From a virus (Duplodnaviria > Heunggongvirae > Uroviricota > Caudoviricetes), in IMG/VR virus record IMGVR_UViG_2690316166_000020: a stretch of 4,987 nucleotides of DNA, one strand, 5' to 3'. The notes beneath the pieces were generated by a model. It was given only the letters and a program-made list of their open reading frames with translations, searched no databases and had not been told where the DNA came from. How positions within the stretch are numbered: the stretch's first letter is position 1; each line of letters begins with the position of its first letter. The position numbers and the translations under genes were made by a program. Of the stretch, positions 1-4,235 are shown piece after piece.

Positions 1-28
1 ACACTATCAATAAGTTGGAGTCATTACC
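1..28. repeat. Left copy of a perfect 28-bp inverted repeat (partner at 4957-4984)
   Basis: Read directly: 1-28 acactatcaataagttggagtcattacc is the exact reverse complement of 4957-4984 ggtaatgactccaacttattgatagtgt. The match breaks inward at 29/4956. Outward extension cannot be tested because the left copy starts at window position 1. Confidence 0.95.
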
Positions 29-410
29 CGTTAAAACATCTGCAGATAATGACGTTGACTTGGATACAGATGGATTCAGACAACTGAGGATATCGTGCCC
101 ATCCCCTTCTGCCAGCGGTGCGATTATATTGAGAAAAGCTTCTTATGAATTCGGCAAAAGTATAGGTGTATTTGATTTTGCAAACAATGCATCACCAGCG
201 ACGATGACATTTTTGATCCCAATATATAAAGATGATGATTTTGATTCAGATACTGTTGGTTTTACATTTGCGTTCAAGATGCCAAGAGGCCAGTTTTTTG
301 TAGATGTAAAAGAAAACGGGAATATCAGAGCTGGAGTTAATGTTAATGGCGAGTCGGGAGTGACCTACGAAAATTGCAAATTGAATATGAAAGATATTAA
401 TGATGATTAA
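3..410 (+). CDS. 3' portion (about 135 codons) of an AT-rich ORF of unknown function; the 5' end probably lies upstream of the window
   Basis: Frame 3 is open from the first full codon (pos 3) to TAA at 408-410. The track start at 15 is a TTG with no Shine-Dalgarno; the first in-frame ATG (204-206) also lacks an SD, so the gene most likely begins upstream. Hand-counted GC is about 35% versus about 60% in the downstream tail genes. The translation (...KDDDFDSDTVGFTFAFKMPRGQFFVDVKENGNIRAGVNVNGESG...) is beta-rich and acidic, with no motif I recognise. It is the only long ORF on either strand in 1-410 and is followed by a terminator. Confidence 0.55.
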   Translation, partial: TINKLESLPVKTSADNDVDLDTDGFRQLRISCPSPSASGAIILRKASYEFGKSIGVFDFANNASPATMTFLIPIYKDDDFDSDTVGFTFAFKMPRGQFFVDVKENGNIRAGVNVNGESGVTYENCKLNMKDINDD

Positions 411-416
411 TATATA

Positions 417-442
417 AGCCGCCAGAAATTGGCGGTTTTTTT
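417..442 (+). terminator. Rho-independent terminator downstream of the AT-rich ORF
   Basis: Stem 419-424 (ccgcca) pairs with 430-435 (tggcgg), 6 bp, with one or two extra closing pairs (418 G-U, 417 A-U). Loop is gaaat (425-429). A run of 7 T follows (436-442). It lies 7 nt after the TAA stop. Confidence 0.6.
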
Positions 443-456
443 ATAGTGGAGACAGT

Positions 457-1977
457 ATGGACTTACCTTCTTTACCTTCTCTTTCTTCACTCTTTTCTGC
501 ATCTTCAGGTATCAATTGGCGCGATAATCTTTACGACGCTTCATTTCGTGGCGTTCCGTTTTCGGTGGAGAGCGACGAGGGTTCGTTCGGACGCCGCGTT
601 CAGGTCCATGAATACCCAAACCGTGACAAACCGTACACGGAAGATCTCGGGCGTGCCACGCGACGGCTGACGATTAATGCGTATCTCGTTGGTGATGATT
701 ACGCAGAGCAGCGCGACAGGCTGATTACAGCGATTGAAACCGCCGGGCCGGGGACGCTGATCCATCCGCAGTTCGGTGAAATGCAGGGCTGTATTGACGG
801 GCAGGTGACCGTTTCTCACTCCGGCACTGAAGGCCGTATGTGCCGGGTTTCATTTCAGTTTGTTGAGAGCGGGGAACTGTCATTTCCGGTCGCCGGANNN
901 NNNNNNNNNNNNNNNNNNNNNNNNNNNNNNNNNNNNNNNNNNNNNNNNNNNNNNNNNNNNNNNNNNNNNNNNNNNNNNNNNNNNNNNNNNNNNNNNNNNN
1001 NNNNNNNNNNNNNNNNNNNNNNNNNNNNNNNNNNNNNNNNNNNNNNNNNNNNNNNNNNNNNNNNNNNNNNNNNNNNNNNNNNNNNNNNNNNNNNNNNNNN
1101 NNNNNNNNNNNNNNNNNNNNNNNNNNNNNNNNNNNNNNNNNNNNNNNNNNNNNNNNNNNNNNNNNNNNNNNNNNNNNNNNNNNNNNNNNNNNNNNNNNNN
1201 NNNNNNNNNNNNNNNNNNNNNNNNNNNNNNNNNNNNNNNNNNNNNNNNNNNNNNNNNNNNNNNNNNNNNNNNNNNNNNNNNNNNNNNNNNNNNNNNNNCT
1301 GGCGGGCCGGAACCCGGCTGGTGGATAACACACAGGATCTGGTGCAGTCCATAACGACAATGTCCGGCATTACGCTGGACCCAGGACTGGCACCGCGTGC
1401 GGTGTGGCCCACAGATTCCGCATCGGTTATCAGGCAAAAACAGCAGACAAACCTTGTGGCTGCTGTCATCCGGACGACGGCAATCAGCGAAGCCACAAGG
1501 GCGGTCACTTCACTGCCACAACCCGGAAGCCTGGTGAAAAATCAGCAGGCGGTTGTGGCTGTTGGTGGTTCCACTGAACGTCAGTCCGATATTATTCACG
1601 TTTCTCATCCGGCACTTGACAGCGTGGCAGCCAGCACAGGACAGGATGAGAGAGCGCAACCACCCACGCGGGAAAATCTCACCATCATACGCGAATCGCT
1701 GAACGCGGCGATTGAACAGGAGCTCAGGCGTACGGCGGATGACAGGCTGTTTTTTCAGCTGACGTCATTACGTACAGAACTGAACCGGGATATTCAGGCG
1801 CGTCTGGTTCAGACGGAGGAAACCGCAGAGCGAACGCCAGCGGAAGTTCTGCCTGCGCTTGTTCTGGCTGCGTCATGGTACGACGATGCGTCCCGTGAAA
1901 CTGATATCCTGGATCGAAATGCCATCTCTCATCCGGGCTTTGTTCCGGTCAGGGCATTAAGGGTACCCGTCAGATGA
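457..1977 (+). CDS. Mu N-like tail protein (DNA circularization protein family), 506 codons, internally masked
   Basis: ATG at 457 is preceded by GGAG (448-451) with a 5-nt spacer; the ORF runs to TGA 1975-1977. Visible parts are the N-terminal 147 aa and C-terminal about 225 aa (898-1298 masked). The N-terminal region (...DNLYDASFRGVPFSVESDEGSFGRRVQVHEYPNRDKPYTEDLGRATRRL...YLVGDDYAEQRDRL...GPGTLIHPQFG...) matches my recollection of the DNA-circularization N-terminal domain family of Mu-like phages. Length (about 500 aa) and position directly upstream of, and overlapping by ATGA with, a P-like gene fit Mu order N-P. No database search was possible. Confidence 0.75.
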   Translation: MDLPSLPSLSSLFSASSGINWRDNLYDASFRGVPFSVESDEGSFGRRVQVHEYPNRDKPYTEDLGRATRRLTINAYLVGDDYAEQRDRLITAIETAGPGTLIHPQFGEMQGCIDGQVTVSHSGTEGRMCRVSFQFVESGELSFPVAGXXXXXXXXXXXXXXXXXXXXXXXXXXXXXXXXXXXXXXXXXXXXXXXXXXXXXXXXXXXXXXXXXXXXXXXXXXXXXXXXXXXXXXXXXXXXXXXXXXXXXXXXXXXXXXXXXXXXXXXXXXXXXXXXXXXXXXWRAGTRLVDNTQDLVQSITTMSGITLDPGLAPRAVWPTDSASVIRQKQQTNLVAAVIRTTAISEATRAVTSLPQPGSLVKNQQAVVAVGGSTERQSDIIHVSHPALDSVAASTGQDERAQPPTRENLTIIRESLNAAIEQELRRTADDRLFFQLTSLRTELNRDIQARLVQTEETAERTPAEVLPALVLAASWYDDASRETDILDRNAISHPGFVPVRALRVPVR

Positions 1978-2666: not shown

Positions 2667-4235
2667 ATATCAGGTCAGTGGGCAGCGCCCGGGCAACGAC
2701 GATGATTTTGGTGAGGCCACCATTGCCGCAATACGTCANNNNNNNNNNNNNNNNNNNNNNNNNNNNNNNNNNNNNNNNNNNNNNNNNNNNNNNNNNNNNN
2801 NNNNNNNNNNNNNNNNNNNNNNNNNNNNNNNNNNNNNNNNNNNNNNNNNNNNNNNNNNNNNNNNNNNNNNNNNNNNNNNNNNNNNNNNNNNNNNNNNNNN
2901 NNNNNNNNNNNNNNNNNNNNNNNNNNNNNNNNNNNNNNNNNNNNNNNNNNNNNNNNNNNNNNNNNNNNNNNNNNNNNNNNNNNNNNNNNNNNNNNNNNNN
3001 NNNNNNNNNNNNNNNNNNNNNNNNNNNNNNNNNNNNNNNNNNNNNNNNNNNNNNNNNNNNNNNNNNNNNNNNNNNNNNNNNNNNNNNNNNNNNNNNNNNN
3101 NNNNNNNNNNNNNNNNNNNNNNNNNNNNNNNNNNNNNNNNNNNNNNNNNNNNNNNNNNNNNNNNNNNNNNNNNNNNNNNNNNNNNNNNNNNNNNNNNNNN
3201 NNNNNNNNNNNNNNNNNNNNNNNNNNNNNNNNNNNNNNNNNNNNNNNNNNNNNNNNNNNNNNNNNNNNNNNNNNNNNNNNNNNNNNNNNNNNNNNNNNNN
3301 NNNNNNNNNNNNNNNNNNNNNNNNNNNNNNNNNNNNNNNNNNNNNNNNNNNNNNNNNNNNNNNNNNNNNNNNNNNNNNNNNNNNNNNNNNNNNNNNNNNN
3401 NNNNNNNNNNNNNNNNNNNNNNNNNNNNNNNNNNNNNNNNNNNNNNNNNNNNNNNNNNNNNNNNNNNNNNNNNNNNNNNNNNNNNNNNNNNNNNNNNNNN
3501 NNNNNNNNNNNNNNNNNNNNNNNNNNNNNNNNNNNNNNNNNNNNNNNNNNNNNNNNNNNNNNNNNNNNNNNNNNNNNNNNNNNNNNNNNNNNNNNNNNNN
3601 NNNNNNNNNNNNNNNNNNNNNNNNNNNNNNNNNNNNNNNNNNNNNNNNNNNNNNNNNNNNNNNNNNNNNNNNNNNNNNNNNNNNNNNNNNNNNNNNNNNN
3701 NNNNNNNNNNNNNNNNNNNNNNNNNNNNNNNNNNNNNNNNNNNNNNNNNNNNNNNNNNNNNNNNNNNNNNNNNNNNNNNNNNNNNNNNNNNNNNNNNNNN
3801 NNNNNNNNNNNNNNNNNNNNNNNNNNNNNNNNNNNNNNNNNNNNNNNNNNNNNNNNNNNNNNNNNNNNNNNNNNNNNNNNNNNNNNNNNNNNNNNNNNNN
3901 NNNNNNNNNNNNNNNNNNNNNNNNNNNNNNNNNNNNNNNNNNNNNNNNNNNNNNNNNNNNNNNNNNNNNNNNNNNNNNNNNNNNNNNNNNNNNNNNNNNN
4001 NNNNNNNNNNNNNNNNNNNNNNNNNNNNNNNNNNNNNNNNNNNNNNNNNNNNNNNNNNNNNNNNNNNNNNNNNNNNNNNNNNNNNNNNNNNNNNNNNNNN
4101 NNNNNNNNNNNNNNNNNNNNNNNNNNNNNNNNNNNNNNNNNNNNNNNNNNNNNNNNNNNNNNNNNNNNNNNNNNNNNNNNNNNNNNNNNNNNNNNNNNNN
4201 NNNNNNNNNNNNNNNNNNNNNNNNNNNNNNNNNNN

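Follow-up and report, generated by a model that had tools for sequence, protein, structure and literature searches.

The window analysed here is a 4,987-nt stretch of a tailed-phage genome (Caudoviricetes; IMG/VR record IMGVR_UViG_2690316166_000020). It opens with the end of an insertion sequence, IS1, followed by the remnant of an AT-rich gene, a G+C-rich hairpin with a seven-U tract, and a tail gene of the Mu gp43/N type, hereafter N, whose RefSeq name is "DNA circularization protein". In intact relatives the AT-rich gene, which we refer to as the cargo gene, lies between the tape-measure gene and N. The original prediction, made from the letters of the window, had placed a strong intrinsic terminator immediately upstream of an N-like gene; this was borne out at positions 416-442, where a canonical stem, a loop, and seven U follow each other. 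The hairpin is real and conserved, and it probably functions as an ordinary terminator. We propose that an optional cargo cassette, inserted between the tape-measure and DNA-circularization genes, ends in this intrinsic (Rho-independent) terminator, and that Q-modified RNA polymerase would pass it during lytic growth. We put the probability of this reading at roughly three in four.

A canonical terminator between the cargo gene and N

The stem comprises 9 bp and closes a 5-nt loop. Its G+C core has 6 bp, five of them G-C, and is formed by C419-A424 paired with U430-G435 (CCGCCA/UGGCGG). Hairpin and U-tract sit in the 46-nt gap between the stop codon of the cargo gene and the next ATG. The seven-T tract, the GGAG Shine-Dalgarno (SD) sequence, and its 5-nt spacer were confirmed at the coordinates first given for them; the flanking gaps, originally put at 7 nt and about 15 nt, measure 5 nt from the stop codon to the hairpin and 14 nt from the end of the U-tract to the ATG of N.

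The structure is also stable. The original prediction had allowed for a hairpin of only marginal stability, and RNAfold does not bear out that reservation: positions 405-460 fold at -16.9 kcal/mol (z = -3.9), a value that none of 200 dinucleotide shuffles equalled, and the hairpin alone accounts for -12.8 to -13.3 kcal/mol. On the minus strand, the corresponding structure is weaker (-10.4 kcal/mol), with the tail CUUAUAUAUU in place of a proper U-tract. A scan with a loose terminator consensus returned 3 sites against 2.9 expected and is uninformative taken alone. We therefore rely on a strict criterion, i.e., a hairpin of -12 kcal/mol or lower with at least 7 T in the 8 nt directly after it. 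Applied to both strands of the equivalent 6 kb of an intact relative, it recovered the cassette terminator as the sole match, and 150 dinucleotide shuffles gave a mean of 0.033 matches. The element thus combines the recognised features of intrinsic terminators (a G+C stem of about 5-11 bp, a short loop, and an adjoining U-rich tract) with an intergenic position on the coding strand, downstream of a gene, and with a structure that is kept despite sequence change.

A scan of Rfam 15 gave no match at the gathering score for the hairpin region. The sub-threshold scores (RcsR1, 24 bits against 60; sroD, 22 against 50; Phe_leader, 22 against 55) belong to matches that all end at 441-445, which suggests that they correspond to the terminator portions of those models. 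A dispersed repeat or mobile hairpin was also considered and rejected. The 55-mer around the hairpin is single-copy and occurs only with the cargo cassette; it was found once per genome in 10 of 5,426 E. coli genomes, always under the same hypothetical-protein gene.

The hairpin and U-tract are kept in ten lineages

Searches of protein, viral, genome, and metagenome collections traced the cargo gene through ten lineages, down to 38-45% protein identity. These are E. coli/Shigella, to which the window belongs, Yersinia enterocolitica, the vB_EcoM-720R4 type (about 40 IMG/VR and metagenome loci), Leclercia, Citrobacter, Pantoea, and four metagenome contigs. In every one of the ten, the cargo gene lies between the tape-measure and DNA_circ_N genes and is followed by a G+C hairpin and U-tract of its own, just upstream of the N ribosome-binding site (Table 1). 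The base composition of the gene sets it apart from its surroundings, with a G+C content of 0.34-0.39 against 0.48-0.56 in the flanking 600 nt in nine lineages. The same step is seen in the window, from 0.34-0.41 in the cargo remnant to 0.53-0.61 in the N gene.

Table 1. Terminators of the cargo cassette by lineage (hairpin and U-tract, with the loop set off by hyphens)
Lineage	Hairpin and U-tract
Window (E. coli/Shigella)	AAGCCGCCA-GAAAU-UGGCGGUUUUUUU
Yersinia	AAACCGCC-CAAUUGA-GGCGGUUUUUU
vB_EcoM-720R4 type	AAAAACCGCGU-UUAC-ACGCGGUUUUU
Leclercia	AAACCCGCC-AAUC-GGCGGGUUUUUU
Citrobacter	AAACCCGC-UUCG-GCGGGUUUUUUU
Pantoea	GACCCGC-UUCG-GCGGGUUUUUU
Metagenome L054	AAAAAACCCAC-UCCG-GUGGGUUUUUUU
Metagenome L056	AACCCACCG-CGAAUU-CGGUGGGUUUUUUU
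Metagenome L057	AACCCGCC-AAUC-GGCGGGUUUUUU
Metagenome L058	AACCCGC-UACG-GCGGGUUUUUU

The stems themselves differ, with cores as distinct as CCGCCA/UGGCGG, CCGCGU/ACGCGG, CCCGCC/GGCGGG, CCCAC/GUGGG, and CCCACCG/CGGUGGG. Base pairing is maintained throughout: counting five core pairs in each of seven lineages, all 35 are canonical, and both sides have changed at three of the five pair positions. Part of this compensatory pattern could represent a one-base slide of the stem instead of independent substitutions. The pairs were tallied manually, starting at the stem base; MAFFT did not bring the 5' arms of the different stem types into register, which made the automated alignment unusable for this purpose, and a covariance model built from four lineages missed the window and Yersinia types and drew unrelated matches. 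The U-tract is as constant as the pairing, with seven U within the first eight nucleotides after the G+C core in all seven of the lineages tabulated for this count; a variant with six T exists within the window's own lineage (L010/L013). An SD sequence of the GGAG type follows the terminator in most cassette lineages, and a weaker GAGG does so in Yersinia and in the type designated B.

Type B and some other lineages have an A-tract ahead of the stem, with the effect that both strands score as terminators. In the type-B locus L003 the values are -14.9 kcal/mol for the minus strand and -13.5 kcal/mol for the plus strand, and vB_EcoM-720R4 has an equally strong terminator at the same spot, again with both strands scoring. 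That ten diverged lineages keep a hairpin and U-tract with different stems and two-sided pair changes speaks against a chance structure, and its maintenance amid intergenic sequences that can no longer be aligned argues strongly for selection. A further structure was noted in the leader of the type-B cassette, where a perfect palindrome (CTACTT-TAATC-AAGTAG; L003 5852-5868) stands right after the tape-measure stop. It is not followed by a T-tract, and the window's lineage lacks it; a protein-binding site and an RNA hairpin are both conceivable.

The terminator comes and goes with the cargo cassette

Relatives that lack the cargo gene show the junction in its simple form. The tape-measure stop of E. 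coli UTME-13 (L002) is 15 nt from the N start, and the gap between the two genes is likewise 15 nt in phage phiP27 (L059); neither has a hairpin there. Cassette-less N genes of E. coli resemble the window from base 453 onwards, shortly beyond the U-tract. In the set of E. coli genomes, 11 carry the cassette and some tens have the N gene only. The cassette as a whole measures about 580 bp and consists of a leader of about 65 nt, the AT-rich gene, the 5-nt gap, and the hairpin with its U-tract. Because cassette-less relatives have a 15-nt gap devoid of a hairpin, the comparison assigns the terminator to the optional cargo cassette and not to the tail operon.

A lambdoid gene plan with Q in the carriers

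Two carriers of the cassette are annotated, namely the prophage of E. coli FDAARGOS_944, which is the closest complete relative of the window, and vB_EcoM-720R4, deposited as a complete phage genome. The FDAARGOS_944 prophage is annotated with an integrase, an exonuclease, cI/cro-like regulators, RusA, the antitermination protein Q, tRNAs, holin/lysozyme, a terminase of the P27 type, and a protease and capsid of the HK97 type. The tail genes come next and run on a single strand, from sheath and tube through the tape measure, N, P, gp45, gp46, and gp47 to the fibres. vB_EcoM-720R4 is organised in the same way, and its Q is intact. Both genomes therefore encode Q upstream of one co-directional lysis-head-tail block, and a Mor/C-type activator is annotated in neither. 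By gene content, the host element is a lambdoid prophage with an HK97-type head and a Mu-type tail, and not as a Mu-like phage in its regulation. The original prediction had taken the locus for a "canonical Mu-like late region" read from upstream promoters; that premise was wrong, since the carriers are lambdoid with Q and only their tail module is Mu-like. Mu itself, according to one published account, transcribes its late genes from four C-dependent promoters, one of which (PP) is named for gene P, and not from a single upstream promoter (PMC2582627).

The FDAARGOS_944 prophage is defective (L001 3307-6107; L004 1380-3925, 4119-5877, and 8869-9557). Copies of ISEc60 split its sheath and portal genes, and its terminase large subunit and Q genes are frameshifted. 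Next to the prophage lies an ipaH effector pseudogene, a sign that the host resembles Shigella or enteroinvasive E. coli (EIEC). Another terminator-like hairpin of the late region, AAAGCCGCUGCGUAAUGCGGUUUUUU, is weaker and overlaps the end of the major capsid gene (L001 1294-1317, L002 2785-2823). The covariance model of the cassette terminator also matched the L002 capsid site, with an E value of 0.0044, and this hairpin may mark a step in late-operon expression.

A consensus scan of 411-456, including the 14 nt between the terminator and the N start, found no promoter-like site, and neither a minus-strand gene nor a promoter-like site was found near the window terminator. As the sole ribosome-binding site of N lies 6 nt past the U-tract, with no promoter between, lytic mRNA for N and the genes downstream must cross the terminator. 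Read-through presumably occurs, because vB_EcoM-720R4, a complete phage genome, has an equally strong hairpin at this position. The lambdoid carriers encode Q upstream of a single late block, which makes Q-modified polymerase the likely route; Q is known to let polymerase pass terminators (PMC3851460). Of the two needs first suggested for the genes from N through P to J, antitermination hence fits, whereas a promoter of their own does not agree with the scan. The proposed search for a late-promoter activator site was equally negative within 411-456, and with no Mor/C annotated it loses its relevance.

Features of the window and the interrupted cargo gene

The remaining features of the window are compiled with the terminator in Table 2. 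The AT-rich reading frame upstream of the hairpin had been taken for an intact gene. The gene is real, but in the window it is a remnant truncated by IS1, which adjoins it upstream in the same orientation. The 131-aa frame, from a TTG at 15 to 410, lacks its own start and signal peptide; it is an artefact, since its first 14 nt belong to the IS1 terminal repeat. Window positions 1-33 match the ends of annotated IS1 copies across E. coli, and 1-28 have no match in the FDAARGOS_944 prophage, to which 29-897 are 100% identical. Positions 29-410 are 100% identical to L001 9001-9382, within the intact 160-aa gene WP_000594909.1, which in FDAARGOS_944 sits complete between the tape-measure and DNA-circularization genes. 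A second IMG/VR record (UViG_2874968258_000001, here L012) matches the window at 100% and contains the whole 768-bp IS1 with a 9-bp target duplication, CGTTAAAAC. The corresponding stretch of L012 is 2204-2999, and the reading frames of the element match the NCBIfam IS1 family transposase NF033558 (E values of 7.5e-26 and 6.3e-42).

Table 2. Features of the window around the cassette terminator
Feature	Position	Strand	Description
IS1 end	1-28	+	Terminal inverted repeat, last 28 nt; IS1 inserted in cargo gene
Cargo gene, 3' remnant	29-410	+	About codons 35-160 plus stop TAA (408-410)
Terminator hairpin	416-438	+	5' arm 416-424 (AAGCCGCCA), loop 425-429 (GAAAU), 3' arm 430-438 (UGGCGGUUU)
U-tract	436-442	+	Seven consecutive T directly after G435; T436-T438 may pair with AAG 416-418 as well
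Ribosome-binding region of N gene	448-459	+	SD GGAG 448-451, 5-nt spacer, ATG 457-459
DNA-circularization gene (Mu gp43/N-type, baseplate hub)	457-1977	+	PF07157 DNA_circ_N, E 4e-37; phrog_184, E 2e-67

N is the first tail gene downstream of the terminator. Its sequence is masked at 898-1298, and further masked runs cover 2237-2654 and 2739-4235. The first of these runs holds 401 masked letters where the otherwise identical L012 and L001 have 272 nt (+129 nt). Because of this 129-nt excess, the N gene appears as 506 aa in the window against 463 aa in L012, and all downstream coordinates are shifted. Another stable hairpin was noted on the plus strand at 820-847 (UCCGGCAC...GUGCCGGG, -13.1 kcal/mol), followed by an interrupted T-tract, TTTCATTTCA. 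It lies within the DNA-circularization coding region, has a large loop, and is non-canonical; it is probably a coincidence of coding sequence.

An independent IS1, in the opposite orientation, is inserted 31 nt into the DNA-circularization gene of the loci L005 and L006 (at about 3560, equivalent to window 487/488). Insertions of this second kind are carried by Shigella flexneri SFBU1023 and E. coli ECMA0423. Prophages of the window's type are decaying through IS insertions.

The cargo protein is predicted to be exported

The cargo gene encodes a protein of about 150-160 aa that matches PHROG 5586 (phrog_5586) with an E value of 9.7e-89. Pfam, NCBIfam, and PADLOC searches of the protein gave no match, and a sequence search of the PDB returned nothing meaningful. 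All homologues share an N-terminal signal peptide, in most cases ending in A-x-A|K; a CPxxSASG segment is invariant, and two cysteines are conserved. A possible lipobox (LTSC) is seen in the window's lineage, but the homologues have ordinary signal peptides, and the protein is therefore not firmly assigned as a lipoprotein. AlphaFold modelling with 17 sequences reached a pLDDT of 85, compared with 41 when 8 sequences were supplied, and the predicted fold is an 8-stranded beta-barrel. Fold searches with this model matched only generic small beta-barrels. Periplasmic lysozyme inhibitors of the MliC/PliC type were considered for the protein and set aside, since neither membership in the Pfam MliC family nor a close fold match was found.

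A more specific role can be suggested by analogy, and we advance it tentatively. The cargo gene might be a dedicated optional partner of the Mu-type tail module, with a private terminator for its own expression in lysogens, and its product might act in the periplasm in superinfection exclusion or as an inhibitor of a lysozyme-type enzyme. The exclusion idea follows the analogy with HK97 gp15, and the protein would be directed against the incoming tails of related phages. If this were true, the terminator would mark a previously unrecognised, widespread prophage defence or conversion gene in Enterobacteriaceae. phrog_5586 is in any case a widespread, uncharacterised family of exported prophage proteins. 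Its constant place beside the tape-measure gene and its conserved private terminator make it a fair candidate for a role in lysogens, for instance in superinfection exclusion.

Proposed function and alternative explanations

If the element works as in the established model of intrinsic termination, the nascent RNA would form the G+C-rich hairpin at the point where the polymerase contains the weak rU:dA hybrid made by the seven-U tract, and release of the transcript would follow near 440-443. Unmodified RNA polymerase would stop at this point. Transcription of the cargo gene in the repressed prophage would thus end there, as would stray transcription arising from the AT-rich DNA or, in the source of the window, from the inserted IS1, and the baseplate and tail-fibre genes would be left untranscribed in the lysogen. 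During lytic growth, the tail genes would be transcribed through the terminator by terminator-resistant, Q-modified polymerase.

Several observations weigh against this proposal. A moron (an inserted prophage gene with its own signals) that moved freely would not usually show such strict synteny, with the cassette always at the junction of tape measure and N, and the cargo gene could instead be functionally tied to the tail module. The stretch ahead of the cargo gene, 34-109 nt long and in most cases 61-71 nt, contains no convincing sigma-70 promoter in any lineage; a consensus scan of this gap gave none, and a relaxed scan picked up weak extended -10-like motifs in some lineages (TGgTAAAGT in type B, TGgCAAAAT in Yersinia), none of which is conserved. 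Independent expression of the cargo gene in lysogens is therefore hypothetical. The gene carries its own SD sequence and could be expressed only within the late transcript, in which case a terminator ignored by Q-modified polymerase would bring no obvious benefit and yet has been conserved. Furthermore, Q is frameshifted (L004) in the one examined genome with the window's type of cassette. The suggestion that the AT-rich gene forms a separately regulated unit fits the evidence on the cassette; no promoter of its own was found.

Four other explanations were weighed, and all of them are less well supported, mainly because cassette-less phages do without the element while the U-tract is conserved wherever it occurs. 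A built-in attenuator of the late operon, i.e., a partial terminator that even in lytic growth would keep transcripts for the low-copy baseplate and fibre proteins below those for the sheath, tube, and tape measure, which are high-copy and encoded upstream, would be well placed, since the site falls exactly on the boundary between these gene groups. The weaker terminator-like hairpin after the major capsid gene of the same operon, a common place for expression steps, is in line with such an arrangement. We nonetheless judge it unlikely: related phages with the same tail module, including phiP27, lack a terminator at the junction, so the tail operon has no need of one; the hairpin is present only together with the cargo gene, in 10 of 10 lineages; and Q-modified polymerase would be expected to ignore it. 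A hairpin serving mainly as an RNA-stability element, which would shield the upstream message or the 3' end of processed late mRNA from 3'-5' exonucleases, is quite unlikely. Any stable 3' hairpin protects, and this one is stable and stands at a gene end; the uninterrupted U-tract that abuts it in all examined lineages, however, is needed for termination and not for protection from exonucleases. The two roles are not mutually exclusive. Both the attenuator and the RNA-stability options had been raised in the original prediction, and neither is as well supported as a terminator of the cargo cassette.

The bidirectional scores of type B and some other lineages, exemplified by L003, would suit an insulator that blocks antisense or outside transcription from insertion sequences or from antisense promoters in AT-rich DNA, as would the IS1 lying directly upstream in the window, in the same orientation. 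We regard this as very unlikely, since the minus-strand version of the window's lineage is poor, there is no minus-strand gene or promoter-like site nearby, and the IS1 insertion is a secondary event that most copies lack. Least probable of all, and in our view highly improbable, is a structure without present function, left by chance or as a relic of the gene's earlier genomic context. The lack of a recognisable cargo-gene promoter and the expected bypass of the terminator in lambdoid late operons are compatible with it, but ten lineages at about 40% protein identity have kept the hairpin and U-tract with compensatory changes, and such a site is expected 0.03 times per 6 kb by chance. The terminator of an optional cargo cassette remains the reading that we favour, and it has a practical side for annotation. 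It removes a seeming paradox: a strong terminator in mid-operon would mark where an inserted cargo cassette ends within a lambdoid prophage that depends on Q, and is no sign of unusual regulation of the tail genes.

Comparison with known systems

The hairpin itself teaches nothing new about termination. With a G+C stem of 6-9 bp, a loop of 4-5 nt, and seven U a few nucleotides past a stop codon, it resembles canonical E. coli-type intrinsic terminators and shows no structural difference from them; what sets it apart is a location inside a long co-directional operon, where it must be overridden. For that, lambda-type Q late operons offer the model, since the annotated Q of the carriers lies upstream of lysis, head, and tail genes in one direction. 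This likeness is drawn from gene layout, and the frameshift of Q in the one examined genome with the window's cassette type is a difference. The resemblance to Mu is confined to the tail genes, where homologues of N, P, Q, V, and W occur in the same order. The carrier is not a transposable phage, no Mor/C is annotated, and there is no promoter-like site near the terminator.

The closest parallel is the moron, an inserted gene of deviant G+C content with its own promoter and terminator that is expressed from the repressed prophage (PMC3594210). Its type example, HK97 gene 15, neighbours the tape-measure gene within the tail operon (Juhala et al. 2000; Cumby et al. 2012; reviewed in PMC3594210). 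By the description of Hendrix and Juhala, the cargo gene has three marks of a moron: it stands between tail genes that are adjacent in related phages (UTME-13 and phiP27), its base composition is deviant, with a G+C content clearly below that of its neighbours, and a factor-independent terminator follows its 3' end. Like HK97 gene 15, it lies next to the tape-measure gene, and its product would go to the cell envelope. There are also differences. No upstream promoter was identified for the cargo gene, whose expression from the prophage is conjectural. HK97 gp15 is a small inner-membrane protein, and the cargo protein is unrelated to it, a predicted exported beta-barrel. In addition, the cargo gene is found at the same place in tail modules that have diverged widely, and in this respect it is more like an optional module component than a moron inserted at will.
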